DNA from: Giardia intestinalis
Lineage: Eukaryota
NCBI GenBank assembly: GCA_000002435.2
Contig: CM018790.1
DNA length: 64,000 nucleotides
Reading direction: 5' to 3' (one strand)
Shown here: in pieces, positions 46,101 to 63,901 of the stretch
Numbering within the stretch: position 1 is the stretch's first letter
Layout: every line of letters starts with the position of its first letter
The notes under the pieces: model-generated
Database searches by the model: none
Told to the model about the DNA's origin: nothing
The model's input: the letters and a program-made list of their open reading frames with translations, nothing else
Made by a program: the position numbers and the translations under genes

Positions 46101-48026
46101 TATACCAAGTCTGGTGAAACAGCCCTTATGCTAGCGGCAAAGAGCTACAGAGGTAAGATGGACAAGAATCTACTCGCTCTCGAGGCAGGAATGCGGGATT
46201 CCTATGGAAGATTGGCATCGTGCATTGCCATAGAGCGTGGAAACACAGAGTTTCTCACTGAGGTTCTTCCGTATGAACGGGATGCTCTGATTGCAGATGG
46301 ATTCACAGACCTAATGCTTTCTATTCTTGAGGATGATTATGTTGCCCTGATGCACCACCTTAAGAATCCAGAACAGCAATGCGGTCAAGTCGTCATGTCA
46401 GCTTACACTGCGCTTAACATTTGCATATACTGTGGCAAGAATACGCTTATACCGCTTTTTCTGCCCTACGAAGCCGACATAGAAATCCACGACAAGCTTA
46501 AGCCGTTGGACCTCGCCTATGCGACCCGCAACGTCGAGGCCATACTTCTCTTAATGCCTTACACATACACGGGAGGGCGACTGGCACTCTCCCAGTGCCT
46601 TTCCAACCTCATTCGAGCAGCCATGAAGGAGCAGCGTCTTTCAGATACAAGAGCATATGACCTTCTAGCAGCATTTCACAGCTCAAACTATCGCCAGCTC
46701 AAGGAGGCTCTTCAGAGTAACGACATTCAAAGCATGAAGGCGTTCAAGGAGCTGGCAGATAGTTTCCAGGCCGTTGCTTTGAATATTGAATACCTTGTTC
46801 TCCCAGACGCTGTCTTTGATGACAATGGAAACTCTCAACTACACATCGCTGCCCTGGCTGCAGATACACGTCTTGCAGCTGCGTTTGTACATCTGCATAG
46901 TTTGCGCAACAAAAAGGGAGAAACAGCGCTCATGCTCGCCGCTCGAAGCGGTTCTGAAGCCGTGGTCGACATCCTTCTAAACTACGAGGCGGAGATGCAG
47001 GACAACAACAAAATGACGGCAACGGAACATAGCATTGTGAGCGGCACATTCCACAAAGTTCTGAACCTGTATACACGGGAGAAGGCCTTTCTCGTTAACG
47101 AGTGTGAGCTTTCTCCTCTCATGCTTGCTGTTTTGGAAGGAGACATTAAAACTGTGAGCGCCGGCCTCAAGTATGCAAAGCTGCGCACATCGTCTGGAAT
47201 GACTGCTTTGCATATGGCTATCTACCTCCGGCAGCAAGCACACGCCAATCTCCTCAAGATGGAGAAAGGAATCCTCACATACGATGGCTTGTCACCGTGG
47301 TTCTTAGCTAAAGAGAAGCGCATGGCACATGATTTCTTAGAACCTGACTCCACGGTAGATGCATTGGGCTGTACAGAGCTCCATCGGGCTGCAATCCAGA
47401 ACAATTCGCAACAAGTAAGGAACTACTTACCTCTTGCGCAACAATATAATGCAAATGGTCGCACCTCTCTTATGGAAGCGGCTCTTGCCGGTTCACTAGA
47501 CGCCGCGAAGATACTCGTCGACCATGAACACGGAATGCGGGCAAGGGCCCGTTTCGTTGTGGGCAATAGCTACTTTGATGAAGCCACTGCATTAATGTTT
47601 GCTGCCGCTGCAGGGCATGAGAGCATTGTACGGCTTCTGATCCCCTACGAGTGTAAGATGCACGAGTCGTGCAACGGAAAGACGGCGCTGATGGCTGCCG
47701 CGGCAGCGGGTCACCTTTCCACCCTTAAACTCCTGATTGATAGCGAGGGAGGGCTTACAGGCCAAAATGGCTGGACCGCGCTGATGTCTGTAGTCTCTAA
47801 GCAGTACGTTGATTGCGTCGCTCCCCTGTTGGAGAAGGAGGCAGGAATGCGGGATTCTCAGGGAAACTGCGCTCTTGTGACAGCAATAAGCAACGGGAAC
47901 ATGGACATCGTACGGGTGTTAGCTCCAATTGAGGCGAAGATAATGGGGAAATCTACTCTCATGCGCATCTGGAAGAGCAACATAGCATACGACGAGATAG
48001 TTCGGTATGTTAACAAGCTACTATGA
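43170..48026 (+). CDS. ankyrin-repeat protein (protein 21.1 family) with an N-terminal NEK-like pseudokinase domain, 1618 aa
   Basis: About 40 ankyrin units of the Giardia type (GNTALVYAI..., GRTALMYAAECGYLAAIDVL..., GKTALMAAAAAGHLSTLKLL...). The N-terminal 230 aa have a kinase fold (YAFKYF..., LITQLLEGV..., APPEV...SADIWMIGAILYELLT) but lack the GxGxxG, HRD and DFG catalytic motifs. ATG 24 bp after the Dim1 stop. Confidence 0.8.
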   Translation: MADNEYTLISQVSATENCKTMLVQHNGTGNYAFKYFYTSWPVPNARLRSCMDAYLQLTCPHIIRLQTYSIDTAFTLVTDMTNGPSLRSLIIKRRIAQQWFTSVEIWLLITQLLEGVKAYQSFYARVGAAADTPPNLFLSPFFILISDEERMKLQITEFYQTLLLPSVQRLYATSGVAPPEVSKHLPISASADIWMIGAILYELLTLQQLDLDRLIELNSDVVTLAKIDNLYPIDYEPLEPYQSVAVYSFLDHGKAFRYRELYSLLSCMLIINPDKRPPVELLLDYALLHTPALVQPGSPGSSLSRPEDGHVPREKGGNDAAIQSSIIVGSDAPDATLQNTLLVGVKTELHKAVEENNLDKLFMNLQFARSTDIDGNTALVYAIKANNEDAVKILAQEEIGVLTGEGYSPLHLALLLNHIQLAKYLDASYDLQFLHGVELWVDEHGVSNLMRCVCERNLVGVYYYSDKQQKLQDYDGKTALIKAVLNYNEGLPAGQEDVNLAIIRLLRLHEARIQDKRGRTALMYAAECGYLAAIDVLSGSEAGMRDNEGHNSLEMAFSNRKLEAARRMLLLEPVPHSCPDRQGLTDLMKACIEEDAFSLFCHMTQTRATDINGNTALMHCVIHDRPEFIPELSEEYRMINRITGHSAMMLAVQLERRACFEALIKHESGLKSSSGMTALMMCASQGLRPYVNRLLNIETNIFNGTWNAMTYAIAANHHEIIGLLAPLELNLSAVLKDYDALTDTAAEIQQELEGAASSVRSTISLNSGYTPLMFAAQQANINAVWGLRDKYLGRKDQHGFTALIYATRVKSLECCRLLVDERDILCNQGLSAWFYAYQNGYHEPLDIIRPTIKYANTEHRLTDLHMLILRNEVPLSSVQPGGTVSSSLTADSTVRSSSAKSSLHHRDPHEGLQSTYTPNRFRRSQVTTSAILCPKELSNTSNMISLESSLVLPEDPPTKTQPDYLQDVSTLLYLTKLYTKSGETALMLAAKSYRGKMDKNLLALEAGMRDSYGRLASCIAIERGNTEFLTEVLPYERDALIADGFTDLMLSILEDDYVALMHHLKNPEQQCGQVVMSAYTALNICIYCGKNTLIPLFLPYEADIEIHDKLKPLDLAYATRNVEAILLLMPYTYTGGRLALSQCLSNLIRAAMKEQRLSDTRAYDLLAAFHSSNYRQLKEALQSNDIQSMKAFKELADSFQAVALNIEYLVLPDAVFDDNGNSQLHIAALAADTRLAAAFVHLHSLRNKKGETALMLAARSGSEAVVDILLNYEAEMQDNNKMTATEHSIVSGTFHKVLNLYTREKAFLVNECELSPLMLAVLEGDIKTVSAGLKYAKLRTSSGMTALHMAIYLRQQAHANLLKMEKGILTYDGLSPWFLAKEKRMAHDFLEPDSTVDALGCTELHRAAIQNNSQQVRNYLPLAQQYNANGRTSLMEAALAGSLDAAKILVDHEHGMRARARFVVGNSYFDEATALMFAAAAGHESIVRLLIPYECKMHESCNGKTALMAAAAAGHLSTLKLLIDSEGGLTGQNGWTALMSVVSKQYVDCVAPLLEKEAGMRDSQGNCALVTAISNGNMDIVRVLAPIEAKIMGKSTLMRIWKSNIAYDEIVRYVNKLL

Positions 48027-50386: not shown

Positions 50387-51496
50387 ATGCCTCTTCTGTC
50401 TGTCAATAGTTGGTTTGGAACCAAGTCTCCCTTCTTCACTCAGAATATGCGGCACTGCGTGCCTAACCCAGGGGTTATCCTCATAATGTCGCTTTTGTTT
50501 ACCGGATCAATAATTTTCCTAATAATCAGCGCGATAGCTTTTTCGTTCAATTCTGCACAAGCATATGGGATAGCACACTACTCTACACCTTCATCTGGAG
50601 CATCTTCTCAAACAGAGCCAGTGACTGTTACTCTCGAACGATTTAATGTGGAAAAGCCCCTTTACGTATACTACCATCTACAAGACTTCCATCAGAACGT
50701 TCGGTTCTATGTCTCTAGCTTTAGTAGGAAGCAGCTCCAATCAGACAGCTTTAAAGCCGCTGGTCTGAACAAGGACTGCAATAAAGGGGGGACGGTAGTA
50801 GATGAGCCATGCGGCCTTATTTATCAATCCTTATTCAACGATACCTTGGCTAGTACCACAACAAACGAAGTAACCTTTTATATCACCAGCACAGACACCT
50901 CCGCAAATCCGTCTCAACCTATAAAGGTTCAGTTGCCTATTAATACAACGGGGATTGCCTGGAAGGAGGACATCAAGAGCACTAGAATGTATGGAAAGGC
51001 ATTCCAAGCTCTTCCAAATAGTGAAGCTGTTGCAGTATGGATGCGAACAGCACCCCTAAGTACATTTGACAAGCTTTACGGACGGTTCACTGCAGAGCAA
51101 CTCAAGGCCCTCGTCACAGACTCTTACACAGCGGAAACCATATATGATGCTTCGAAGGCTGGCGGTGTAACCGTGGAGTTTTCGGTGACAAATAACTTTC
51201 CATACGGGAAGAAGTCCATTGTGCTGCAGCAAATGACCGTTTTCGGAGGATACTATGAAACAAGGAACTTAGCAATCTTATCTATAATCTTAGGGTGTGT
51301 CATGTTTATCTGCGGACTTACTCTTCTCATCATCTTCCTCGAACGCGGACCGCGGAGTGCCAAGTATAAGACAGTCTTAGAACAGTATCCTATAGTTACC
51401 AATAGCAGCATTCTCCTGTCTGAGCTCGAAAGGATGGGGGACGAGAAGGTCCGCAGAACCATACGCCAGGTAAAGGCCGAAATGGGACTCAAGTGA
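50387..51496 (+). CDS. CDC50/LEM3 (TMEM30) family protein, the P4-ATPase beta-subunit family
   Basis: Family motifs: PLYVYYHLQDFHQNVRFYVSS (the FYQNHRRY block) and DEPCGLIYQSLFNDT (the PCGLIAxSxFNDT block). Two transmembrane helices flank a large glycosylated ectodomain. The ORF-track start at 50372 is a TTG; the first ATG is at 50387. Confidence 0.7.
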   Translation: MPLLSVNSWFGTKSPFFTQNMRHCVPNPGVILIMSLLFTGSIIFLIISAIAFSFNSAQAYGIAHYSTPSSGASSQTEPVTVTLERFNVEKPLYVYYHLQDFHQNVRFYVSSFSRKQLQSDSFKAAGLNKDCNKGGTVVDEPCGLIYQSLFNDTLASTTTNEVTFYITSTDTSANPSQPIKVQLPINTTGIAWKEDIKSTRMYGKAFQALPNSEAVAVWMRTAPLSTFDKLYGRFTAEQLKALVTDSYTAETIYDASKAGGVTVEFSVTNNFPYGKKSIVLQQMTVFGGYYETRNLAILSIILGCVMFICGLTLLIIFLERGPRSAKYKTVLEQYPIVTNSSILLSELERMGDEKVRRTIRQVKAEMGLK

Positions 51497-51525: not shown

Positions 51526-53220
51526 TCACACGCTTTTTCCATCGCAACTGAAGATGTCATCAACGCGCAGGATCATACAAGCATTTTCTATAGCGGCCTT
51601 GAGGACCTGCAGCTTTGTGCTCAGTGGGTCCCAGATGCCCTGCTCCTTGCAGTTGACGAGGAGCCCTGTGACCCCATCGACACCCAGCTGACAGTTCGGG
51701 TCACTGGTGTGGGCAGCCTTGAGCTCGGTGATGGTCCTTATTATATTCCCACCGCAGTTCTGCAGCAGCGTCCGTGGGATCACCTCCAGGGATTTGGCGA
51801 CTGCCTTAATGACAAGCTGAGGCTTTCCGACAAGGGTGTCTGCATACTGAGAGAGTGCCGTCGACAAGTGAGCCTCAAAACAGCCTCCGCCAATGACCAG
51901 GCGCGGGTCAAGGATAATATTCCTGCACACGTGCATGGCGTCCTGAATGTTCCGCTCTATCTCCAGCAGGGTGCTCTTGGAGGCGCCTCGAAGCACAATG
52001 GTACAGGCACTGGCCTTACCCCCAGATTGGTGGATGAAGGAAAAGAACTCGTCACCGATCTTCTGGAGCTCATAGAGGCCTGCGTATGTCCCCACATCAC
52101 TTTCTTGAAGCTCCTCCACGCGACTGACAATGGTGGCACCGGAAACTGCCGCAAGGCGCACGTTGTCTGTCTTCCTGACGCGCCTGAGGACTGTCACGCC
52201 GTGCTGGACAAACATATGAGTCGCCTGATCCGCCACACCCTTCTCGGTGATGACCAGGTCGGGCTTGAAGCTGAGGATCTTCTCCACGTGGGTCCTAATG
52301 TAGTCTTCTTCGACCTTGAGTATGTCTCCTAGATCAGACTTCCCTTGGAACAGCTCTACGTTCATCATTGATTGGGCCTTCTTGTACTCTAGAGGGCAAT
52401 CCAGAAGAAGTATGCGGGGATTCTTGATGTACTTCCTCATATCGGGGTGAATGACATCCTTATTAAGCACTACGCCATCGATGACGCAGCAGTCCTCCAC
52501 AGTCGCACCAGGGATCTTCTCTATGCGGCAAAACCTCTTAATATCAATGTCAACTGAAGCACCAAGCTCTGCTTCATCCCCTTTTGAACGCGCATCCTTA
52601 GTGACACCCACTAGACCCTTGCGCACCTCCGCTCCACGTCCTCTAGCGACTATGCTGACCGCCTCGAGCGCAAGGTTGCACATGAGATCCATCCATCTAC
52701 TGACAAACTTCGTGGATAGCGAGTTCTTTAAAACTGTCATAATAGGGCCTGCCGCCTCAGACTTCAGACCCAGGATCTCTATGCCCTTTATATTTATTTC
52801 AAATGAAGATCTTTCTGCCTCACTCAAAAGAAAGTCCAAGGCTTTCTGGTATCCCTGCGTAATGAGAATAGGATGTATCCCACACTTGAGAAGGGGCTCT
52901 GCCATGGCGATCACCTCCCCTGCCAGGATGACAACGCTTGTGGTGCCGTCTCCGACTTGCTCCTCCTGGGCCCGTGAAACCTCCAGCATGGCCTTGGCTG
53001 CGGGGTGTGCCACGTCGAGCTCGCGCAGGATGGCGTTCCCGTCGTTTGTCATGACCACGCTCCCCATTGAGTCCAGGATCATCTTGAGCATGGAGCGTGG
53101 GCCCATCGTTGTCCTGATGACGTCTGCGACTGTCTTACTTGCCTTGATGTTGTTCATGCGGGCCATTTCTCGGCGCTCGCTCTCGGTGCCTTGGCTCAGG
53201 ACATAGACTTGGGGCTGCAT
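51526..53220 (-). CDS. CCT3: T-complex protein 1 subunit gamma (CCT3), 564 aa
   Basis: Group II chaperonin motifs: TNDGNAILRELDVAHPAAKAMLEVSRAQEEQVGDGTTSVVILAGE. The N-terminus aligns specifically with CCT-gamma (VLSQ.T.RE.G......NI.A.KT.AD.IRT..GP.SM.KM.LD.MG). ATG start. Confidence 0.9.
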   Translation of the reverse strand: MQPQVYVLSQGTESERREMARMNNIKASKTVADVIRTTMGPRSMLKMILDSMGSVVMTNDGNAILRELDVAHPAAKAMLEVSRAQEEQVGDGTTSVVILAGEVIAMAEPLLKCGIHPILITQGYQKALDFLLSEAERSSFEINIKGIEILGLKSEAAGPIMTVLKNSLSTKFVSRWMDLMCNLALEAVSIVARGRGAEVRKGLVGVTKDARSKGDEAELGASVDIDIKRFCRIEKIPGATVEDCCVIDGVVLNKDVIHPDMRKYIKNPRILLLDCPLEYKKAQSMMNVELFQGKSDLGDILKVEEDYIRTHVEKILSFKPDLVITEKGVADQATHMFVQHGVTVLRRVRKTDNVRLAAVSGATIVSRVEELQESDVGTYAGLYELQKIGDEFFSFIHQSGGKASACTIVLRGASKSTLLEIERNIQDAMHVCRNIILDPRLVIGGGCFEAHLSTALSQYADTLVGKPQLVIKAVAKSLEVIPRTLLQNCGGNIIRTITELKAAHTSDPNCQLGVDGVTGLLVNCKEQGIWDPLSTKLQVLKAAIENACMILRVDDIFSCDGKSV

Positions 53221-53308
53221 TTTTTATTAAGGCAGTTTTTTGCCACTCTGTTTACTCTGCTCAGGCAGGCTGACGCAATAGTGCACTGGTATTCATGTTA
53301 TGGGGATC

Positions 53309-55037
53309 TCACATAGACGGGAACGAGAGCCCTCTGCTGTCCTTCTTCTTGGGCCCGGCATATGAGGATGTGAGTCTGCTCATTAAAAAATAGAAACAAT
53401 ATTGCTGTAGTTTTGTCTCTTGGCGATGTCGAGGACCGTGGTACCAGGTGGAAAGCATCGATCTTTGCAGGTAGTTCTCATATCCCTCTCCCTTTCCATA
53501 AGTAGCTTGGCACACTCTGTTTTGTAATGATACACTGCCTTCATAAGAATGGTCTAGCCAGTGGTACTCTGGATGCCAGCTTTTTTGTCCATCAATAGCT
53601 TAACACATTCTGAGTGATTATTATGCGCTGCATACATGAGCGCAGTTTGGCCATGTCAATTTTTCATGCCACCTTCGTGCTTTATTAGCAATGTAACCAC
53701 TTCTGTGTGCCCATGCACCGCTGCTAACATCAACGCTGTCTCTTCGTATCCATTCCATCCACTTATGTCAAAATACTTCGCTGTCTTTCCCTTTCGGATA
53801 GAAATAAAACGATTCACAGCCTCCATATCCCGCATTCTACAGCCTGCATGAGCCTGGTGACGCCTTTATTATCTGTCGGATCAAGGAGCTCCACAATATC
53901 TGTGTGCTTCACTAACAAAGCAAGCATCATCGTGGTTTTACCATTGCTATTCACCCCATATTTACCAGACAAATACTCCAATGCAGTGCTCTTGGAAGCA
54001 GCGCTTGTGAGCAGAGTATATGAGAAATCCTGTATAGCTGACTCCTAAAATCCTTTCTAGAGTCATTTATCTCTCCTGATTTGAGGCTAAGGCTGTTCTC
54101 AAGAGGCTCGATCTCCGATTAGCATTGTCTAGAGCAGCCTCTAGTGCCGTGACTCAAGCCCGTAGTCTTCCTTTTAGAACACCAGATTCTTGAAGCAGCC
54201 TACCAAGCTCCCTGGCTGTTGGTCTTTGAGTGGGGTCTAGAACAAGCGCTTTCTTGAGGATACTCCTTATGAGGTCGTCTTCAACTGCACTCAGGCTGAG
54301 CCTTTGCCCATCAACGAAGACATTCCTCGGGTGCTGCTCCCAGGAGATTAGGCATTTGAAAGTGAAGAGCTCATAGGCGGTAGCACCGAAGACCCGACGT
54401 CGAACGTAGGGCCGGTCTCGTCCCTGAGGTGGATCTCGGGAGCCATGTATGCTTGGTTCCCAAAATGGCACTCCCATTGTGCAGGACATCCTTGCAGAGC
54501 CCGAAGTCCGCAAGAGCTGAGCCTGCCATTTCTGCTGACATCGACTTTGTCGGGGTCGTGAAGGTAGGTAAGGATGATGGCGATCTGCTCCATGATGGAG
54601 AGCACTGTATCGGTAGGGTTACCGGTTCTTGCTCAATCGGCAATCACATCTTGAGGCACCGATCTCAGCGGTCCATGATGATGAAGATGGAGTGAGCGTC
54701 TCTGAGCACCCGGTAGTGCCTAATGACATCTAGGTGTGAGCGTCTGGAAATGGTGGCCAGCGCGACCCAGTGGCCTCCGTGAGCTTCCCACTCTGAGTCT
54801 TGGATAGCCACCTATCACATGGACAGTACCAAAGCTGCCCACATCAAGCACCCCTCCTCGCATCGATGCAGCTCGTCGGCGGGCACAGGATATCGAGTGC
54901 ACCGTCCCCAGCCATGACGGTGTCAACGGCGCTGTGCAGAGCACGCTCGGGGGCAGGGAAGCGGCCACCCCTGCTCCCGGTTGCTGGCTGGCTGGCGAAG
55001 TACATAAGGCGCACCCGCTTGTCGGCAGCTGCACCAC
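53309..55037 (-). pseudogene. decayed NEK-kinase / coiled-coil / ankyrin-repeat gene, inverted paralogue of the plus-strand gene at 56947..59030
   Basis: A kinase N-lobe fragment (GGVLDVGSFGTVHVIGG), catalytic and activation segments (ADFGLCKD..., AYMAPE, PTQRPTARELGRLL), a coiled-coil fragment (LEAALDNANRRSSLL) and ankyrin units (GKTTMMLALLVKHTDIVELLDPTDNKGVTRLMQAV, TALMLAAVHGHTEVVTLLIKHEGGMKN*HGQTALMYAAHNNHSECVKLLMDKKAGIQSTTG*TILMKA...PGTTVLDIAKRQNYSNIVSIF). They are spread over at least four frames, with in-frame TGA and TAG stops. Confidence 0.6.
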
Positions 55038-55047
55038 TAGTGACGCG

Positions 55048-55053
55048 TTTACT
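55048..55053 (-). promoter_or_regulatory. putative polyadenylation signal AGTAAA of the VSP gene
   Basis: The minus strand reads TAG-ATGTACTTAGGT-AGTAAA, matching the Giardia AGTPuAA consensus 12 nt after the stop. Confidence 0.35.
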
Positions 55054-55065
55054 ACCTAAGTACAT

Positions 55066-56277
55066 CTACGCCTTGCCCCTGCAGATGAACCACCAGCAGA
55101 GGAAGCCCACGAGGCCCCCGACGACAACGATGACAGCGACGGAGATCCCCGCGATGGCGCCGGTAGAAAGGCCGCTCTTGTTCGTGCTACCGCCATCTTT
55201 CATGAGGTAGCAGAGAACGGGGCCTTGATTATTAGATGGGGGAGCGCAGCTCGCGCAGTTAGCGACGCCCTGAATGTTATTGCTTGTCTCTGTACACAGC
55301 TTGCATGCTTTACTGGCGTCCAAGTAACGGCCAGGTGGACAGGCGCTGCACTTATTGGGCTGATTAGCTTCGGTGCATGTCGCACAAGTGGAGTCGCATA
55401 ATGGACACATGTTCGAGACAGCTGTCAAGCCATTCGCACACGTTTGGCATTTTCCATCCCCAGTGGGCGTTGTGCAGATGCTCTTCCCGGGGAGCCTCGT
55501 CGTCTGGTAGCACCCGCCCTCCTGGATGAAGTATCCGGCGGCGCAGACCGTGCAGGCACCGTTAGCGGCAGTGGTGCAGAACCGAGTCCTGGCCGCATTG
55601 CTTGTGCAGACGCCATTGAGCGGCACGTTGTTCCCCTTGCACTTCGAGCAGTACTTGGTACCTCCAATTGTTAGGCCGCACGTCTCGCACTCCGGGCCCT
55701 CCACGCATTGCTCCACGCACGTGCCGTCTGTAGGATTGCTCTCGTCGGCGTACCTCAGCATCTTCCCGGCGGGACAGGCCGTGCACTTGGAAGCGCCGGC
55801 CCCGCTGCACTCCGCACAGGAGGGGTCGCAGGGCGCGCACGTTTGTCCGGATAGATACGTTCCGACAGGGCAGGCATCTAAGCATGCCTTCTTCGTCGGG
55901 GTCAGATGCTTTCCTGGTTCACATTCTTCGCAAGTCTGCTTGTCCGGGGAGCACGTCTGGCAGTTCACGATCGGGCAGTCGGCCTGCGGCGTGCACTGCG
56001 TCCCGTCGTCGTTGGGGTCGAAGCCAGGGCTACACGTCTCGCACCTTGTGTTGTCGCCAGAGACGCACTGGGCGCAGTTCTGGACTCCGCAGTCGGACGC
56101 GGGGTTCTTGGTGCACTTCTTCGTGGTGGGGTTGAGGGTGTAGCCTGAGCCGCACGTCTTGCACTGCTGGGGGTTGCTTTCCTCGCAGACATCACAGCCC
56201 TCGACCTCGCACGGCGCGGTCTTTTCGTTGTGCTTTGCCAGCACGGTTGCACAAACTAGGAGAAATCCTACCAACAT
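55066..56277 (-). CDS. variant-specific surface protein (VSP), 403 aa from the first ATG
   Basis: Signal peptide MLVGFLLVCATVLA. About 25 CXXC pairs. The GGCY motif (IQEGGCYQ). The invariant VSP C-terminus GLSTGAIAGISVAVIVVVGGLVGFLCWWFICRGKA. The ORF-track start at 56334 is a GTG; the ATG is at 56275-56277. Confidence 0.9.
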   Translation of the reverse strand: MLVGFLLVCATVLAKHNEKTAPCEVEGCDVCEESNPQQCKTCGSGYTLNPTTKKCTKNPASDCGVQNCAQCVSGDNTRCETCSPGFDPNDDGTQCTPQADCPIVNCQTCSPDKQTCEECEPGKHLTPTKKACLDACPVGTYLSGQTCAPCDPSCAECSGAGASKCTACPAGKMLRYADESNPTDGTCVEQCVEGPECETCGLTIGGTKYCSKCKGNNVPLNGVCTSNAARTRFCTTAANGACTVCAAGYFIQEGGCYQTTRLPGKSICTTPTGDGKCQTCANGLTAVSNMCPLCDSTCATCTEANQPNKCSACPPGRYLDASKACKLCTETSNNIQGVANCASCAPPSNNQGPVLCYLMKDGGSTNKSGLSTGAIAGISVAVIVVVGGLVGFLCWWFICRGKA

Positions 56278-56946
56278 TAGCCGGAGTTCGTATGCCACTG
56301 CTCTTCTGTCAGGCCGGTGCGTTGCCGCGAGCACTGAGAGACAGCCGCTCTTGCTCTCTTGATCGGTTGGACTGGAGAGGGATAAGATAATAGCACACCC
56401 ACCGGAGGCCGGCTGATGGCACGGTTCCCCCTGGCTTCGATAGGAACAGGACCAGTGAGGAGTAGACTCAGACCGTGCCTCTCTTGTGGAATGATTGATT
56501 GGGGTGCACTCTTGTACATTGCTGTCACTGTATCACTGGGCCCACCTGCAGGTGCGCTCAGAGGCCTCACGGGTAAGCTGCGCCCACTTCTCGACCGTCC
56601 GGAGACGATGGCTGGTTGTGGATAACATACTAAAAGCTCCTCTCCATCGATGCATCCAGAGCTCAGTGTCGTCCCGGTCGGCATACTCTGTCGGGGCACT
56701 CCGCGTCGGCCTCCAGGGTTCGGCCTGCTCAGGGCCATACGAGCCGCTAATGTGCCCTCCTTGGCCTGCCATCAGCAGCTCGCACTAGGCGCCTTACTCA
56801 GGCAGTAGCCAAGGCCACTCCAAAGGGTGGCTCCGGATTGCAGTTAAAATCAGCGGCGGCTGTTGACTCCACTCCCTATCCCAGCTGCCGCAGAGGGTGT
56901 CCTGGGAGACGCTAGTAACAGTGCAGTTAGCGGCTTTGCAGGGCCG

Positions 56947-59030
56947 ATGGGCGTTTGGGGAGCGTGCTCAGAAGGGGCCTTCAGTGTTATCTACTCTCTC
57001 AGGGGATGCCCCCACCTCATTGTGAAGGAGATCCGGCTCGACGGTCTGGGTCAGCACGGTGTGGATGCTAAAGCGTGGGCTGACCGCTCTTTTTATCCTC
57101 TTTCACCCGGGGGTCCTCAAGTACCATCAAGTGATTGAAGACGAGGGCCTTATCTATGTCGTCACGGACCGGCACAGCAGGACTCTTGACAACTTCCTCA
57201 CCGAGCACAAGCGAAGGAAGATCCCCGTGTCTGCCGGCGTGATCCTCTCCGTCATGAAGCAGGTCGCCGCCGCCCTCGCCTACCTTCACAGCGTCAGTGG
57301 GGCAAACACTAAAGGCCTCGTCCACTGTGACCTCAGGCCTGCCAGCATTCTTATCAGCGCAGACGGAGAGCGCTTCATCATCGCCGACTTCGGCCTCTGC
57401 AAGGACGCCCTGTGGAGTGAGAGCACTCTCATAGGAATAATGGCGTACATGGCCCCCGAGGCGCTCCTCCGTAATGAGGCCAGCCCCGCCTCCGACGTAT
57501 GGAGCCTCGGGGTCATCATTTATGAACTAGTAACTCTGAGGAGACCGGACTTCTTGGGGGGCAAGGAGCCGGCAGAGGTCTTCGTCGACGGGTGGAGGCC
57601 GGACCTGAGCGGTGTCGCTGATGGCTTCATAAAGAGTGTTCTGGAGAGGATATTCGTGCTGGAGCCAGAGAGGAGGCCGACGGCCAGGGAGCTGCACGAG
57701 ACGTTCGCTACATTCGACATCCCAGTTGGTGAGCTGAGGGCTCAATACGCGGTGCTGAAGTACGAATGCGGCTCCTTGGAGGCTGCGCTGAATGGCGCTA
57801 ACGCCAGGATCGCGCTGCTGGAAGAGGATGTTAAGACTAAATCCACTAAGATCGACGCACTCGAAGACCAAGGTAAGGAACATCTAGCCATGATTAAGGC
57901 ACTGGAGAGTAGGCTTGCACAGTTCAGTGACAGGATGAACACGGCTGACCCTCAGTCCAGCCTCCTTTTGCTGCCCAGGCTGATGCGTGCCGCGCATACG
58001 AACGGCATGGAGACCGTCCGGATGCTGCTTGAAGAAAGACTCGGTGTTGGTCAGCGCGACGCACAGGGGCACGTTGATCCCGTCGAGTTGTTTGTTGGGG
58101 AGGAGAGGGGCCTCCAGGACAAGAACGGCTGGACTACCTGATGATCGCCACAGAGGAGGGCTATGCAAGAACTGCCTCCCTTCTGGTCCCATATGAGAAG
58201 GACTGGATCGACAGCGAAGGCAAGACGGCCTTGGTGATTGCGGCAGAGGCAGGACATGAAACTGTGGTGGAGGCCATCGACCCAACCGATGAGAACGGCG
58301 TCACGGCGCTCATGCGGGCTGTTAATAGAAATGATGTGGGGGCTGTAAAAGCACTCTTACCCATCCAGAGGGGGAGGAAAACATACAAAGAGGTCACAAT
58401 AAGCGGATGGTACATGGGCAAAGGAACAGCTCTGATGGTGGCTGCGGCAAGTGGACACGCAGAACTAGTAGAACTGCTAGCAGAGCACGAAAAGGGGAGA
58501 AAGTAGGCGGTTGGGCCGCTCCCGTATTCGCGGCACTGTGCAATCGTTCCAATGACCCCCTGGTGGACTATATTGGGCACGTTGAGCTTTTGATGGAGTA
58601 TGAGAGCAGTATCTCAGGGTGGACGGAGCTCATGTATGCAGCAGCACGAGGGCACGAAGGAATCGTAGAGCTGCTCAAGCAGGAGACTGGCATAAGGAAC
58701 AACGAGCATCAGACTGCCCTCATGTGGGCAGCACGCAATGATCATCCAGAGTGCGTCAGGCTCCTACTGAAGGACGAAGGCGGCATGCAAACGACCAAGG
58801 GCTGGACCGCTCTTATAAACGCAGCATATAGCAACGCCGTGGAATGTGCAAGACTTCTTAAGGAAAACGAGAAGGAGCTGAAGACAATTTCTAGCTGCCA
58901 TGATCACTCGCCCGGTACCACTGTCCTCAGTATCGCTAAGAAGAAGGATCGCAAAGAGATAGTAGGCATCCTCCCAAACGAGATCTGCTCTTCTTTATCG
59001 AGGTCGGCTTGCCAGCTCCTGTCCGAGTAA
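56947..59030 (+). pseudogene. NEK kinase / coiled-coil / ankyrin-repeat (protein 21.1) gene broken into four reading frames. It is either a pseudogene or carries sequence errors
   Basis: Segments: 56947..57138 (MGVWGACSEGAFSVIYSL...IVKEIRLDGL, kinase N-lobe); 57059..58141 in another frame (HCDLRPASILI, ADFGLCKD, YMAPE, coiled coil, first ankyrin); 58141..58506 in a third frame; 58407..59030 in a fourth. At 58135-58145, ...NGWTT*MIATEEGY would read GWTT-L-MIA if one base were restored. Confidence 0.5.
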
Positions 59031-62023
59031 ACCCGTCCAGGATCCGAAGCTTAGATGCCGCCCACTCTGGAGAAGAGCCTTGTGCATCCCGCCTGGAAGC
59101 CGTTGGGTGCTCCACTATGCATTCCGGAGCGTCTCTCCTCTCTGACTGGCTTGGGTCAACCATCGTCTGACATCTAGTGAGCACCCGCTGTCTCGGGCCT
59201 TGCGTCAGTCGTGGCGATCCAGTCTCGAGAGCAGTTAACTCTGGCCATGTACTCTGGAGTAGCTTTGTGGCCCTGGTGCTCTACGACGAGGATCGCACGC
59301 CACGACCCCGGGTGTCGACTCCCGTTCCTCGGGGTGCCTCTTCATCTTCTCGTGGAGGGCACCATCTGTTCCATTATCAAGGATGCGCTCCCCGTGTGCC
59401 TCTATCCTGGAGTCATAGTACGCATTCGTGGATGCCGATGGAGTACTCTTATACGTTGTGTCGGGGGAGAGGCCCACCCCTCTGCTCATGGATCGCAGTG
59501 CGCTCTTGCAGGTGGTCCGTCACCCAGCACGAGACCGTGTCGACGCTCACCCTGTGCAGTGCGTCTGGCTCAGTGACCTGTGGGCTGGTCCATCTGCACT
59601 GCACAACACACTTGGGGGGAATGATTCGGTCTGTCGAGGCGTCGTCCAAAGCATCACGAGCGATCAAGACCGGTTCGCCGTTAGGCCGTCTTTCTCTACA
59701 CCGGCACCCGTCTACTCGAGGGTGTCAGGTACTGCCAGCTGCTGTAGTAGACACCCAGCAGGTGGCCCAGACCACTACTCCTCGGTGCGGACAGGATCAG
59801 TCCGCCTCTGCCAACCAGACACCCCAGGAGCCCCATCTCTTGTCGAGGGACTCACATAGGCCACGTGTGGGTCCATCTCGACCAGCGGGGCGAGTGATTA
59901 GTGCCATCACTGGCTTCAGGTTCTCTGCTGCCTTGAGGGGTCCTTCGAGACCAGCCAGGAAGAAGGCCTCCTGCTCCTCTGTGCTCCTACACCCAGTGCT
60001 GACCGTCGAGCCATGCTGCTTCCCAGGCCTGTCGCCTCTGTGACTATCCTCGCCGCGTCACTGTTGTCGGCATGGGCACTGAGTGGGGTATCTCCTCAGC
60101 TCCCGATGAGCAGGTTCTGTCCCGCGCAGTGTGAAGGCATACTCAGGGCCCCGAGGGACCGAATCCAGGGGTGCAGCGTGTCGCAGCTGAAGGAAGGCCT
60201 CGACGCAGCTCCTCGGGACTACCTTGTGGAGCGAATCATGATCGTCCATTGATTGTGGTCGCCCTGTCTCATTCTTGAGGAAGGACCAGGCGGAACCGTA
60301 CAGAGCACGCATCCCATCCTATGGATCGCGCTGAGGATCTCGTTGAAGGCCTGCACCCGGATGGACTCGCCAGCGCAGACCCGGGGACTTCGAGCCCCGT
60401 GGACTGGCCGTCCGTGCTCTCCGATGGCTGAGGGGCTCGTGTCCCTCAGGGGCCAGGCCGTCCTGATCCGGCCCCTCTGGATAGCAAGGTTCTGGTCGTC
60501 GGTGGCGCTGTCAGGGTGCAGCTCCCCCTCGAGGCGAGGCAGAGGCTGCAGGCCGGGCAGTGGGGTGGTGACTGTTGCTCCTCTGCTTCCCCGCTGTGTG
60601 GGGAGGCACGTCTCCTCGGCTCTCGACTGGAGCTCTGCGGGGTGTTAGGTACCCTCCCCTGAGCACGTTCGCACGACGGGCGCTGAGGGGGATTTCCTTC
60701 TCTATCCCCGCTGCCCCACTCAGCAGCGCCCTGCATCCGGTGTCTGTGCTGCATGCGTCTGGACGGCCTCACCGCGGAGGGTTTTCGCGCAGGACAGGCA
60801 CGTGCTCTTCCGTTCCTACTAGTTCAACGTTCGCCTGGTGCCACTACAGCGTAGGGCGCCCCTCTCCATCAGGTTCCTAAGATCCTCGTTCTCGCTGTGA
60901 TACCTGATCTCTCCCCCGTGAGGGGTGGGGTCCACGGTGCACTGGTGTGTGTCCGGGACGATGCCCCCTCATGGAGCTCTGCAGGTTCCAGGACCCTCTG
61001 GGGACAGCCAGCAACTGGGACCCCTGCTGTGAGCTAGGTTGAACTAGCTCCACCGGGCCACGAGCAGCTTCATGGCACTCTGGTGTTGCTGGTCTCTCAA
61101 CCGCACATGCTTGGCCTGTCCTAGCAGATAGTGGGGTCGTGCCTGAGTACTTTCGAGGAGTCTGGGAAGCGCTCCGGTCCGATGCTTTCTATCCAGAGCA
61201 TCGCGACGGGCAACGGTGAGGGCCCGCGTGGGACACCGCACTTGGGCACCAAGGCTCGGTGTGCGTGAGCTGGCACCGTCTGTCGGTCGAAAAGCTGCAG
61301 AAGGAGCAGCAAGAGGAGCCCAAAGCGGGAGAGGGTTCTCCAGACGTGCTGCTCGAGACCCTTTAGAAGTCGAAAGAGACATGGCAGGAGACGCAGAAGT
61401 GGTCGAGTGGCTCTTCGTGCTGTGGATCGCGTAGGAGGTCCCCGAGGGCGCAGTCTCTTAGTGAACCTGGCGTTCTTGAGCCAGTTCATGTAGTCAGCGA
61501 GTGACCCCTTCAGGGCTAGGTGGTCTCCTAGAGAAACGGTCATTGAGGGCCTGCCACCATGCGCCGCTCTCCATGATAGGGAGATTCAGCGGAGAGAGGT
61601 GTGGGGCCCCTTACTCATTCTATCGGATGCTTTCCAGACTCCATTCTTCGAGCCCCTGAGAACCTTCCTCGGCAGCTCGCTCGTGGGAGCGGTTGCCGGT
61701 CTGCTGCTTGCTGAGGGCTGGGCGTCGGGGCTATCAGCTTTCCGTTTGGGCTTCTTCTCCCGCCGGAACTGGATGGCACTAGATTCCTGGACCCTAGGTT
61801 CGAATGTCGAACAGATGAGTGAGAGAAGACCTGCCTGGTGTGGCGACTCGCACGGAATTTGCTCGGACAGATTGTCTAGAGGTTCCCCAATGGAGTTAAA
61901 TATCTCATAGATTGATGATTTTAGAGACAACAAAGGTGGCAAATTTCAGAGATGAGTGGATTACGCCGGGTGGTTTACTCAAGCTGCAGCTACCAAGATT
62001 CTAGTTAAAGCTCCTACCTTAAG
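59031..62023. other. GC-rich, ORF-poor region of about 3 kb between two convergent genes. No recognisable coding or RNA feature
   Basis: The region is visibly more GC-rich than the flanking genes. The longest ORFs are 84-288 aa, overlap in all six frames, are R/S/P/G-rich with low-complexity translations, start with non-ATG codons, or lack AT-rich initiators. Confidence 0.3.
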
Positions 62024-63901
62024 TTACGTGGTAGTTTGCATCCAAATGAGCCTAGCAACCCGAATGGCGTCGCGTGTCGACCTTAGTGGGGCATTGAGTA
62101 ACGAACCTAAATGATTTGCAACCTCGAAGCGCTTGGATTCTAAAAACGAATAGGCCACAGGATCTGCACCAACACCGTATCGAAGCCGGCCAATTGCTGC
62201 TACAATCAATGCGCAGCAGTGGACTATTTTTGTGTTTGCCTCCTTGAGTAGCCTCATGGATTTCTCTAGAAGCACTAGGATGCCCTCTTGATCTAGCTGG
62301 CGGGATGTGACCCGTTGCTCTAGGATTGCTCCGCAAAGAGTGCTAGTAGGCAGATCCTCGAGGAGCTCATTTAAAGAGATAGCTTCAGATATAGTTTGAT
62401 AGGCGTACGTGGTGTTCGTCTCTTGGAGCATCAGTATAGCAGCGTAAAAGGCGGATCTATCTATACACTTTAAAGCTTTCAAGACCGAGGACAGAAAGGA
62501 GTGAAGTAAGCCTATGTCCTGCGAGGCTTGTAGCACAAAGTGCGTTAGTGCGGAGACGATACAAGGCCCATGTGCTCCCAGAGAGGTTATTGTCCCGAGT
62601 AGTCTATTCACGGCATTTATAAATATAGGCATTTCCTCTGGCGAGCACCATTTGAGAGAGTTCATTGCAATAAGCGTACAGTACTGTGCATCGAAGTCAG
62701 TGGTAGCTAACTGTGCACAAATCTTGATGTACTCAGTACGATTGTGGTGAGATAGATATTGTGCAATAAATAAGGCATCTGGAAGTTTATACTTTAAGCC
62801 CTTTTCTATAAGTGCGCAGGCCTCTGGGTGAGAATCAAAGGCGTATAAATGCAGACGTATTGATAAGTGGAGGCAGTACGCTATTACTTGTGCTTGTAAA
62901 TAACTATCTACGGACTTCTCAAGTCTATTGATTCCCTCCGCTAGACTAGCCACTGCTCCCCCAGCTGACGCTCCATCGATGACTTCTCTAACAAGTGTCT
63001 GGAAGTATTCATTATTTAACAGATCCTCAACTAAATCTAAAACTGGCTTATTTTGTGTCAGTATGGATGTGATGAGCAGGCCTTCAAAATCTTTGATGAT
63101 GCTTGCTCTAATATTCTGTCCGTTAAGAGTTGATAAGGCAAAAGGAAGAGGCAAACCCTCATTCAATTGTATCGTCCTTAGAATGTGTAGATCAACACTG
63201 GCCATTATCGAGCAAAGACGATGCCTGACTGTATCTGGTGTTCCAGCCGTATAATTAACTAGACCAAATAATAGAGACGCCTTCAAACCAGCCATGACTT
63301 CCTCTGGCACATGTGATTGGCAAAATGATATTATGTGCTCCCAACTAGGATGGGTAACAGGAAGGTCCAGCCCCACAGAGCTAAGAGCGTAATAGTATCG
63401 CAGTATGCAAAGCAGATCATCAAGGGCCTCCGGTGCTAGAGACGATACAGTATCTATGTACATTTGTATGGTTTCTAGAAGCTGAGAGGATAGGAGAGGA
63501 TCGCTGATTAGGTGACAGTTGCTGAACGATATGGCAAGGACGTGTGTTCTCAGTCCAAATCTGACCCAGTGCTTCTTGGTTGCTTCGCTAAAGAGCATCA
63601 TAAACTTACATGTTTGCAGAGCGTGTCCCTCTGCGAGTACCATGCATTCGTTGAGAATTTCAATAAAGAGAGACCCCTCAATTACATCGCCAGCGGCAAG
63701 GTGTTCTACTAACAAGTTGAAAAATGTCGTTGAAAAGGCTTCCTTCCCCTGGTCAAGCCTACAGTATGTGCATAAGAGCTTGCAGTTGCTAGAAAAGATC
63801 TTCATGTTCTCGGTAGACCCCATAGAGATCTCCCGCTTTATTGTATCTTCCAGGTGCGCAGAAAACGTGCTTGCAACTTCTGTGTCGTAGTGAGAGAGCA
63901 T
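62024..63901 (-). CDS. hypothetical protein (625 aa), helical-repeat-like
   Basis: Clean 1.88-kb ORF with an ATG start and an in-frame stop 17 codons upstream. No recognisable domain. Confidence 0.5.
   Translation of the reverse strand: MLSHYDTEVASTFSAHLEDTIKREISMGSTENMKIFSSNCKLLCTYCRLDQGKEAFSTTFFNLLVEHLAAGDVIEGSLFIEILNECMVLAEGHALQTCKFMMLFSEATKKHWVRFGLRTHVLAISFSNCHLISDPLLSSQLLETIQMYIDTVSSLAPEALDDLLCILRYYYALSSVGLDLPVTHPSWEHIISFCQSHVPEEVMAGLKASLLFGLVNYTAGTPDTVRHRLCSIMASVDLHILRTIQLNEGLPLPFALSTLNGQNIRASIIKDFEGLLITSILTQNKPVLDLVEDLLNNEYFQTLVREVIDGASAGGAVASLAEGINRLEKSVDSYLQAQVIAYCLHLSIRLHLYAFDSHPEACALIEKGLKYKLPDALFIAQYLSHHNRTEYIKICAQLATTDFDAQYCTLIAMNSLKWCSPEEMPIFINAVNRLLGTITSLGAHGPCIVSALTHFVLQASQDIGLLHSFLSSVLKALKCIDRSAFYAAILMLQETNTTYAYQTISEAISLNELLEDLPTSTLCGAILEQRVTSRQLDQEGILVLLEKSMRLLKEANTKIVHCCALIVAAIGRLRYGVGADPVAYSFLESKRFEVANHLGSLLNAPLRSTRDAIRVARLIWMQTTT

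Follow-up and report, generated by a model that had tools for sequence, protein, structure and literature searches.

In the variable region of Giardia lamblia WB analysed here, a VSP gene is flanked by two broken Nek/coiled-coil/ankyrin genes, which probably derive from different lineages of the Nek-GL4 subfamily and reached the VSP gene separately. The window, that is, the whole 64,000-nucleotide stretch that was analysed, belongs to a 1.54-Mb chromosome record (1,539,535 bp). One Nek relic (named copy A) lies 3' of the VSP gene, both on the minus strand, and the other (named copy B) lies on the plus strand and is divergent from the VSP gene. Both relics are already catalogued. Based on exact sequence strings in Additional file 1 of Manning et al. 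2011 (PMC3218828), from which the class assignment is taken, copy A corresponds to GK431/GL50803_106529 and copy B to GK123/GL50803_137728 (orthology code 1:1:0), each listed there as Nek-GL4 and 'Pseudogene'. The same study counted 32 genes and 29 pseudogenes of Nek-GL4 in WB and wrote of 'rampant gene duplication and pseudogenization' (PMC3218828). A VSP gene with two dead Nek neighbours is ordinary for Giardia variable regions.

The VSP gene and its two Nek neighbours

The VSP gene (55066-56277, minus strand) is complete and encodes 403 aa. The protein matches the Pfam VSP profile PF03302 (E=1.2e-119, 400 bits against a cutoff of 31.4) and contains 18 CXXC motifs, 13.1% Cys, and one GGCY. 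Its N-terminus, MLVGFLLVCATVLA, is hydrophobic and resembles a signal peptide, and its C-terminus carries a hydrophobic stretch, a putative membrane anchor, followed by the CRGKA tail. The start codon at 56277 lies in the context TAatgTT, which fits the initiator-like (Inr) consensus PyAatgTT described at Giardia start codons (PMC2996952). The stop codon is TAG at 55068-55066. A poly(A)-signal-like motif, AGTAAAC (55053-55047, minus strand), follows 13 nt past the stop and agrees with AGTRAAY, the poly(A) signal of Giardia. The features by which the gene was assessed as a VSP gene, namely the profile match with CXXC motifs, the hydrophobic C-terminus with CRGKA, and the Inr start with the poly(A) motif, were all found, and the protein is 100% identical to P0239, annotated as a WB 'VSP' on the 1,539,535-bp record. 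The gene is intact, as the first-pass annotation had stated.

The divergent intergenic region between the VSP gene and copy B (56278-56911) is 85% identical at the nucleotide level to positions 2749-3175 of a contig from isolate DH (AHGT01000023, locus L009) and is also conserved in the 5' flanks of other VSP paralogues. The N-termini of P0272, P0269, and P0294 match its translation, so that the counterpart of this region appears to have been annotated as a false N-terminal extension in other VSP paralogues.

Copy A (53383-54863, minus strand) is dead. A reading in three frames revealed seven frame changes and at least six premature stops (TGA 54667, TGA 54635, TGA 54156, TAA 54069, TGA 53658, and TAG 53556). 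On visual comparison of the two translated copies, a catalytic-loop segment is apparently deleted from A. Its kinase remnant reaches 29.4 bits against Pkinase, below the Pfam cutoff of 31.7 because of this decay, and the ankyrin part is recognised as Ank_2 (1.1e-30). The coiled-coil segment of both copies was recognised only via alignment to relatives. Copy A had been placed downstream of the VSP gene on the same strand, which holds, with a start 30 bp after the VSP gene, which does not: the GTG at 55037 and the end at 53309 are limits of the open reading frame list and not of the gene, and homology runs from 54863 to the TAA at 53385-53383. Two parts of different character can be distinguished on the minus strand. 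The part at 53383-54341, comprising the kinase end, a shortened coiled coil, and TALM-type ankyrin repeats, is single-copy; 54342-55065, which includes the spacer to the VSP stop, may be multi-copy, as suggested by contig breaks and by the conceptual translations of GK427, GK428, and GK430.

Independent support comes from short-read contigs, at least ten of which, drawn from different runs, are 99.9-100% identical to the window. Nine of these enter the ankyrin part of A or the very start of its kinase remnant and end between 54278 and 54471 (most at 54278-54359, one at 54471), and one contig stops at 53201, before reaching copy A. The breaks at 54278-54359 are consistent with a repeat starting there. 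From 53383 to about 54340, the stops and frame changes are confirmed both by the independent short-read contigs and by a second isolate (L010), which is 99.2% identical, carries most of the lesions, and keeps four of the five stops within its covered part. Each isolate also has lesions of its own: L010 has an extra 1-nt deletion at 54303 and reads TGG where WB has TAG at 53556-53554. Between WB and L010, both of assemblage A, divergence is 2.66% in the single-copy part of A versus 0.67% in the 13 kb to the left, so that this part diverges four times faster than the adjoining sequence.

Copy B (about 56912-59030, plus strand) is degenerating as well, in agreement with the first reading. Read from the window assembly, it requires four frame changes to give one frame: -4 nt at 56962, -2 nt at 57070, a lesion at 58135/58138 (58135-58141) that loses about 33 aa, equal to one ankyrin repeat, together with the frame, and -1 nt at about 58496. 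The third lesion yields a double stop after ...NGWTT, and the intact relatives P0141, P0142, P0030, and P0057 have 32-33 extra residues exactly there. The stitched translation matches Pkinase (3.7e-28) and Ank_2 (5.7e-47), and the paralogues of copy B show 70-86% identity. Its 360-aa ORF, in which the VAIK lysine, HCD, and DFG motifs are readable, is 100% identical to the WB protein P0001 (XP_001708665.1), an old gene model that covers only 295 aa of copy B. The only listing found for P0001 is under the older WB gene models in eukprot; none was found under the chromosome-scale record.

We consider it unlikely that the broken Neks are not inert, with the 295-360-aa ORF of copy B acting as a truncated scaffold Nek, or with transcripts of A or B feeding antisense or small-RNA control of the VSP gene. 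The kinase/coiled-coil ORF of B is open, was a called gene in the 2007 annotation, and is annotated 'Kinase, NEK'; A lies directly 3' of the VSP gene on the same strand, where read-through transcripts are conceivable, and SAGE tags are given for some GL4 pseudogenes in Manning et al. (PMC3218828). However, no sign of selection is seen in the sequence: A not only diverges fast but has acquired further lesions separately in each isolate, private frameshifts have arisen both in B and in its DH paralogue, and no Rfam family matched within 53000-62100. It is very unlikely that faulty sequencing or assembly produced the frame changes and that copy B, at least, is in truth one intact Nek/ankyrin ORF: the frame changes of B at 56900-59030 do rest on assembly sequence and its premature stops arise only at them, but its largest lesion (about 100 nt) recurs in the independently sequenced and assembled DH paralogue, the stitched translation of Manning et al., printed to the ankyrin start only, already needed the frameshift at 57070, P0001 was found listed only under the older models, and for A the independent Illumina contigs and the divergent isolate described above carry the lesions too.

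Relation of copy A to copy B

The first-pass annotation had taken the two copies for an old inverted duplication around the VSP gene, that is, an ancestral Nek/ankyrin gene whose two arms then drifted apart and degenerated where they stood, with closer relatives elsewhere, if any, arising later as copies of either arm. The two do lie on opposite strands on either side of the VSP gene, share the domain order and the broad family (Nek-GL4 in the catalogue entries of Manning et al., PMC3218828), and align by tblastx in a collinear chain (E=8e-57, best blocks at 45-47% identity). Failure of the copies to align had been named as one result that would overturn this reading. The significant alignment found is too weak a test, since a significant match is obtained for any pair of Giardia Nek/ankyrin genes, and the similarity between A and B is not above the background of this family. 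At the nucleotide level, A and B form no inverted repeat; they match only in short patches (45-241 nt, 65-80% identity) within conserved kinase and ankyrin motifs. By blastp, copy B ranks 11th to 19th among the relatives of A in the retrieved protein set; with the ankyrin part alone, B takes 19th place among the matches to A, and the top 25 of B do not include A. The peptides that had been paired between the copies lie in the ankyrin repeats and the kinase end, where A is matched better by many other retrieved Nek/21.1 proteins than by B.

A neighbour-joining tree of the kinase domain was built from 43 Giardia sequences with 100 bootstraps, the full WB GL4 set being about 60. A clade of A and B appeared in 0/100 bootstraps. 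Copy A grouped with the WB pseudogene GK450 in 100/100, and these two with two Neks of isolate P15 (P0064 and P0160) in 100/100, while copy B fell in a separate clade beside P0002, P0141, and P0011. The kinase identities agree with the tree, at 38.7% between A and B, 84.2% between B and P0011, and 74.7% between A and GK450, the last measured on the conceptual translation printed in the 2011 supplement. A and B as closest relatives or as an exclusive clade were therefore rejected on the bootstraps and the kinase identity.

The duplication of one gene into two inverted arms is thus highly improbable. The two copies are less close to each other than A is to P0064 and P0160, or B to genes of P15, DH, and WB, and therefore the split of A and B far predates that of assemblages A and E. 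The arrangement is also not mirror-symmetric about the VSP gene, A standing tail-to-head and B head-to-head, unlike the known inverted VSP pairs, and each Nek type is independently linked to VSP genes at other loci. On sequence grounds, A and B appear to be different branches of one fast-duplicating kinase subfamily, Nek-GL4, and hence not two arms of one inverted duplication.

VSP-linked segments and the history of the locus

The head-to-head pair of copy B and the VSP gene has a counterpart in isolate DH. Three blastn blocks connect the window with L009 (59522-56712 at 86%, 56659-56234 at 85%, and 56002-55041 at 89.5%), giving a counterpart that is 85-89% identical at the nucleotide level from about 490 bp past the 3' end of B to 25 nt past the VSP stop, and the outer flanks of L009 are unrelated to those of the window. 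Pairwise alignment of the B segment gives 88.3% identity and shows no indel at 58137, and the DH ORF P0002 ends at the position equivalent to the stop of copy B at 58135-58141. The loss of the ankyrin repeat with its frameshift is common to both, and therefore B would already have been broken when the segment was copied. Such a head-to-head segment appears to be present at least twice in assemblage A, with one extra copy seen, that of DH. A non-coding element 3' of copy B (59155-59768, plus strand) matches L009 4854-5455 at 79.6%, and window positions 59000-59522 match L009 507-1 at 81.9%. Within L009, positions 1-371 and 4835-5204 are inverted and 99.46% identical, so that a 99.5% inverted repeat (371 nt) of this element brackets the paralogous Nek and VSP pair in DH.

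A second arrangement, in which an A-type Nek comes after the VSP 3' end, is found elsewhere too. In the 2011 supplement (PMC3218828), the conceptual translations of GK427, GK428, GK430, and GK431 all begin in an out-of-frame VSP tail ('SAGGSSAG'). Compared on these printed translations rather than in DNA alignments, GK427, GK428, and GK430 are 73-84% identical to A across the frameshifted stretch (82% for GK430), which suggests at least three further WB sites where a dead A-type Nek comes after a VSP 3' end. At a P15 locus (L014), a gap of 285 bp separates a VSP gene from the A-like Nek P0064, which follows it on the same strand; the kinase part of P0064 is stop-free in a single frame, and the Nek is collinear with window positions 54878-54206 at 71-75% nucleotide identity.

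The VSP gene itself appears to join these two arrangements. Its coding sequence is a mosaic of paralogues in the identity profile: identity is 100% to P0243 over residues 121-160 and to P0245 over residues 161-200, and residues 281-360 are about 91% identical to P0240, 84-86% to P0241-42, and about 50% to P0243 and P0245. By blastn, homology to the VSP locus stops at 55041 in L009 and at 55038 in a third paralogous locus (L015), which places the break in paralogous VSP loci 25-28 nt past the stop codon. L015 shares only the 810 bp at the VSP 3' end and, as the site of a close VSP paralogue, has no Nek on either side, so that linkage of Neks to VSP genes is not universal. The first-pass annotation had seen in the locus a footprint of recombination. 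Traces of duplication and recombination are indeed present, but they lie in this end of homology and in the mosaic VSP gene, not in inverted arms.

These observations suggest that the locus is composed of two distinct repeat segments, both VSP-linked, that meet at the VSP gene. The first would be the head-to-head unit of a B-type Nek and the VSP gene, copied after B was broken, and the second the VSP 3' end with the A-type dead Nek; both Neks were probably broken before being copied. Since homology with other VSP loci stops there, the conserved VSP 3' end with its poly(A) signal is likely the junction at which flanks were exchanged, which may have occurred by duplication, gene conversion, or unequal recombination. 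We infer this order of events, together with the age and order of the two joins, and regard the Neks as presumably functionless, passive hitch-hikers on VSP-associated duplication.

More tentatively, it is possible that physical linkage to VSP genes accounts, as a side effect, for most of the extreme turnover and pseudogene load of Nek-GL4. Adjacent Nek fragments would be carried along by the duplication and gene-conversion tracts that diversify VSP genes, the GK123 type head-to-head and the GK431 type tail-to-head, with the VSP 3' end and poly(A) signal serving as the flank-swap junction. If this is true, dead Neks would be molecular fossils by which the movements of VSP cassettes could be traced.

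Comparison with known systems

Copies A and B resemble the other Nek-GL4 pseudogenes of Manning et al. 2011 (Genome Biol 12:R66), in whose catalogue they are entries, in their kinase/coiled-coil/TALM-ankyrin order, their stops and frameshifts, and their close paralogues. In contrast to the present analysis, the searched passages of that text and supplement do not comment on the position of the pseudogenes relative to VSP genes; the recurrent joins of VSP and Nek appear from our reading of the Manning sequences together with L009 and L014.

In duplicated and inverted VSP pairs, the identity of the flanks ends abruptly (Adam et al. 2010, BMC Genomics 11:424; bioRxiv 10.1101/2022.03.07.483299). 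The present locus is similar in that homology runs a few hundred bp past the coding region and stops abruptly, the VSP bodies are mosaic, the copies have pseudogenes and remnants of repeats between or next to them, and its DH paralogue is bracketed by the inverted repeat. It differs in that the window holds a single VSP gene, and the inverted flanks are two different Nek relics rather than one sequence twice.

In Giardia muris, NEK and ankyrin-repeat-protein genes and pseudogenes intervene between paired VSP genes, and these families were suggested to be anchoring points for recombination (Xu et al. 2020, Microb Genom 6:mgen000402). Truncated Nek/ankyrin pseudogenes adjoin VSP genes in both cases. 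However, the species and gene lineages are different, and the muris relics lie between two identical VSP genes, unlike the two Nek relics here, which stand on either side of one.

The VSP gene and its mosaic composition

The gene for a variant-specific surface protein (VSP) at 55066-56277 on the minus strand is intact, in agreement with the first-pass annotation. It encodes a complete protein of 403 aa (Pfam VSP, E=1.2e-119), in which motif counting on the translation identified 18 CXXC motifs, a GGCY motif, a hydrophobic C-terminal anchor, and the CRGKA tail, and AGTAAAC lies 13 nt past the stop codon. The sequence around the start codon, TAatgTT, matches PyAatgTT, the published initiator consensus at vsp start codons (PMC2996952). 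An annotated WB VSP, on a chromosome record of 1,539,535 bp, matches it at 100% identity. A protein identity profile revealed that residues 1-120 resemble no paralogue, and that identity reaches 100% with the VSP P0243 over residues 121-160 and with P0245 over residues 161-200. Over residues 281-360, it is ~91% with P0240, 84-86% with P0241-42, and ~50% with P0243/45. Relative to the WB paralogues, 40-residue blocks of 100% identity thus adjoin blocks of ~50% to the same proteins, and this sharp mosaic pattern suggests recent gene conversion.

The 5' flank of the VSP (56278-56772) is conserved among paralogous VSP loci. An upstream extension of the gene, with tblastn matches up to 56532-56772, was rejected as a product of over-extended gene models in other assemblies (P0272, P0269, and P0294), whose spurious N-terminal extensions are translated 5' flank. 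A sequence of ~80 nt upstream of the VSP (window 56587-56661; 2743-2822 in L009, a contig of isolate DH) recurs inverted just downstream of the DH VSP stop codon (L009 4385-4465, 81%), and the window has the upstream copy only.

Decay of the two flanking Nek relics

Copy A, a dead Nek/coiled-coil/ankyrin gene, lies downstream of the VSP on the minus strand and extends from 54863 to 53383 by homology to intact relatives; the limits assigned to it earlier, 53309 and 30 bp after the VSP, were ORF-list boundaries. Following this homology, we identified seven reading-frame changes, and premature stops at 54667, 54635, 54156, 54069, 53658, and 53556, so the gene is dead, as first proposed. The kinase remnant falls under the Pfam threshold, the ankyrin repeats are still clear, and the coiled coil is shorter than that of copy B. 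The relic is listed in Additional file 1 of Manning et al. 2011 (PMC3218828) as GK431 / GL50803_106529, "Nek-GL4, C, Pseudogene", with a stitched translation.

The lesions of copy A are real, since those between 53383 and ~54340 are confirmed by independent short-read contigs and by a divergent assemblage-A isolate. Ten short-read contigs from different public runs are 99.9-100% identical to the window; nine enter copy A from the housekeeping genes and end at 54278-54471, and the remaining one stops at 53201, short of copy A. Most contigs entering from the left end within this interval, mostly at ~54342, and the break appears to mark the edge of multi-copy sequence. The contig of the divergent isolate (L010, 99.2% identical overall) has the same frame changes as WB and four of the five stops in the covered part; the TAG at 53556-53554 reads TGG, and an extra 1-nt deletion is found at 54303. 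Divergence between WB and this isolate is 2.66% in copy A, 0.67% over the 13 kb on its left, and 0-0.12% within CDC50 and CCT-gamma; the faster divergence of copy A is as expected under relaxed constraint.

The housekeeping genes CCT-gamma (51526-53220) and CDC50 (50387-51496) lie to the left of the locus, and their locus was recovered solely in assemblage-A short-read contigs, which end inside copy A. The gene call for CCT-gamma has 564 aa in contigs L001-L008, which match the window at 100%, and 546 aa in L010-L012, a set that contains both the 99.2% isolate and contigs at 99.9% identity to the window; the difference probably reflects a different choice of start codon. A large, intact Nek/ankyrin gene of 1618 aa is located 5 kb left of the locus (43170-48026); it is called as 1539 aa in several short-read assemblies and differs by 0.78% between two A-assemblage isolates.

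Copy B (56912-59030, plus strand) is a frameshifted Nek/coiled-coil/ankyrin gene transcribed divergently from the VSP. It has four frame changes: -4 nt at 56962, -2 nt at 57070, -1 nt near 58496, and one at 58135/58138, where about one 33-aa ankyrin repeat is lost. No premature stops occur beyond those linked to the frame changes. Its 360-aa ORF (57059-58141) is 100% identical to XP_001708665.1, "Kinase, NEK", of ATCC 50803; together with the WB match of the VSP, this identity places the window in isolate WB (assemblage AI). The survey of Manning et al. 2011 (PMC3218828) lists this relic as GK123 / GL50803_137728, "Nek-GL4, 1:1:0, Pseudogene", again with a stitched translation, and gives GLP15_3881 as its P15 orthologue; this orthologue is absent among the retrieved proteins, where the best match is 64%. 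The earlier statement that both Neks are degenerating holds for copy A by stops, frame changes, and read contigs, and for copy B by four frame changes in assembly sequence, the largest of which also occurs in an independently assembled DH paralogue.

To the right of copy B, the 3 kb at 59030-62024 have 59-65% G+C and contain only ORFs without recognisable similarity, in an otherwise densely coding genome. No decayed VSP, Nek, or ankyrin sequence was found there by Pfam on ORFs, tblastn with all retrieved proteins, or our own HMMs on six-frame translations, and neither an Rfam family nor a tandem repeat (TRF) was detected. This region could be a retrotransposon relic or subtelomere-like sequence.

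Relatedness of copies A and B

The first-pass annotation read the two relics as arms of an old inverted duplication around the VSP. The similarity behind this reading is genuine, as copies A and B align collinearly and far above chance (tblastx, E=8e-57). The family containing both has about 200 members, so a significant alignment is no evidence of direct duplication, and the duplication was judged by relative relatedness rather than by mere alignability. Among the matches to copy A, using stitched translations, copy B ranks 11th when the whole sequence is compared, 18th by the kinase part alone, and 19th by the ankyrin part alone, and copy A is outside the best 25 matches to the ankyrin part of copy B. 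In a neighbor-joining tree of 43 Giardia kinase domains with 100 bootstraps, copy A groups with GK450 (100/100) and, together with it, with the P15 Neks P0064 and P0160 (100/100); copy B falls in a separate clade with P0002, P0141, and P0011, and the pairing of A with B received 0/100. The kinase domains of A and B are 38.7% identical, as against 74.7% for A and GK450 and 84.2% for B and P0011. At the nucleotide level, inverted matches between A and B are limited to patches of 45-241 nt (65-80%) in conserved motifs. With closer relatives of each copy elsewhere, the inverted-duplication reading fails, and by these comparisons A and B are distant cousins in one large family.

The relatives of the two copies also differ in kind. 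Copy B has many at 70-86% protein identity in WB, DH, and P15. No intact relative comes close to copy A, with 35-50% identity for the best ones; blastp against the conceptual translations of Manning et al. matched it to the dead WB paralogues GK427 (84%), GK430 (82%), and GK428 (73%), including stretches read in the wrong frame.

Two proposed VSP-linked segments and their probable junction

Copy B and the VSP belong to one recurring segment. At the start of DH contig AHGT01000023 (L009), P0240, a VSP 81% identical to that of the window, lies head-to-head with a Nek split in three ORFs of 411, 160, and 101 aa. The window matches this contig by blastn at 59522-56712 (86%), 56659-56234 (85%), and 56002-55041 (89.5%), and the homology stops 25 nt past the VSP stop codon. 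The outer genes of L009 are unrelated to those of the window, so L009 is a paralogous locus. Pairwise, the copy B segment (window 56700-59530, L009 1-2765) is 88.3% identical. No indel separates the two sequences at 58137, where the frame changes, and the ORF of the DH kinase ends at the equivalent base. Exactly at this site, an extra 32-33 residues are present in each of the intact relatives P0141, P0142, P0030, and P0057. The lesion common to copy B and L009 and absent from intact relatives argues that the B-type Nek had lost one ankyrin repeat out of frame by the time the Nek+VSP segment was duplicated; private indels arose later in each copy. In L015, a DH locus with a third VSP paralogue (80% identical to that of the window), only the last 810 bp of the gene are shared (90.8%), and homology stops 28 nt past the stop codon. 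This locus was also checked for an A-type relic, and no Nek was found on either side.

A second segment would comprise the VSP tail and copy A. The Manning translations of GK427, GK428, GK430, and GK431 share an opening peptide (...SSAGGSSAG...*VVNASLVVQLPTSG...), an out-of-frame translation of the VSP transmembrane/CRGKA region and poly(A) signal (window ORF 55056-55196), and all four read on through the glycine-loop remnant in the same wrong frame. This common start points to at least four WB loci at which a VSP stop is followed by the same already-frameshifted Nek, as read from the supplement translations. The coiled coil and ankyrin tail are kept by GK431 only, and in the other three the divergence begins no later than the end of the kinase domain; this fits short-read contigs that assemble through the ankyrin part of copy A and mostly break at ~54342. 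At a P15 locus (L014), the Nek P0064 is located 285 bp downstream of a VSP of 625 aa, in the same orientation. This Nek is collinear with window 54878-54206 (71-75% nt) and matches the kinase part of copy A (residues 2-218, stitched translation) in one HSP and a single frame. The linkage of a VSP with a downstream A-type Nek thus seems older than the WB-specific copies.

We infer that the conserved VSP 3' end is a site where different downstream flanks would join, and a join at this locus would have set an A-type flank behind a VSP that had arrived with a B-type partner. On this sequence evidence, the locus is likely a composite of two VSP-linked repeat segments carrying dead Nek hitch-hikers. 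That physical linkage to VSPs drives the turnover of the GL4 kinase subfamily is a tentative and rather doubtful extension. The inverted-duplication footprint first proposed for the locus does not stand; the traces of recombination seen instead are the VSP mosaic and the flank homology ending 25-28 nt past the stop codon.

Comparison with known VSP loci

The features described here are real but ordinary and already catalogued. As a discovery the locus offers little, given that the VSP had been annotated, that both relics have stood in the literature as pseudogenes since 2011, and that VSP, Nek, and 21.1 genes are known to lie together in variable, rearrangement-prone regions. According to the kinome survey (PMC3218828), GL4 in WB comprises 32 genes and 29 pseudogenes, with "rampant gene duplication and pseudogenization". 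VSP, Nek, 21.1, and HCMP genes occur together in variable regions that lack synteny (PMC3091692; PMC4570179), and duplicated VSPs in WB have pseudogenes and repeat relics alongside them (bioRxiv 10.1101/2022.03.07.483299). In G. muris, the intervals between paired VSPs hold Nek or ankyrin pseudogenes, which may provide anchors for recombination (PMC7641422). In the literature, we found no explicit statement tying particular lineages of GL4 pseudogenes to fixed positions relative to VSPs; such recurrence adds slightly to what is known, and its support here comes in part from supplement text in place of DNA. The present check removes a tempting but wrong story of local inverted duplication and leaves a modest lead, namely the recurrence of specific lineages of dead Neks at fixed positions with respect to VSP genes, with lesions or frame structure common to the copies. 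Dead Neks could mark how VSP segments get copied and recombined.

An element downstream of copy B (59155-59768), present as one copy in the window within reach, occurs twice in AHGT01000023 as an inverted repeat (99.5%) flanking the paralogous Nek+VSP pair; its arms lie at L009 1-371 and 4835-5204, and the DH contig ends within one arm. Here a VSP does sit inside a true inverted repeat, but the isolate is another one and the sequence differs from that first proposed. The vsp mosaicism and flank breaks at the present locus agree with published vsp recombination and with flanks whose identity breaks off abruptly (PMC2996952).
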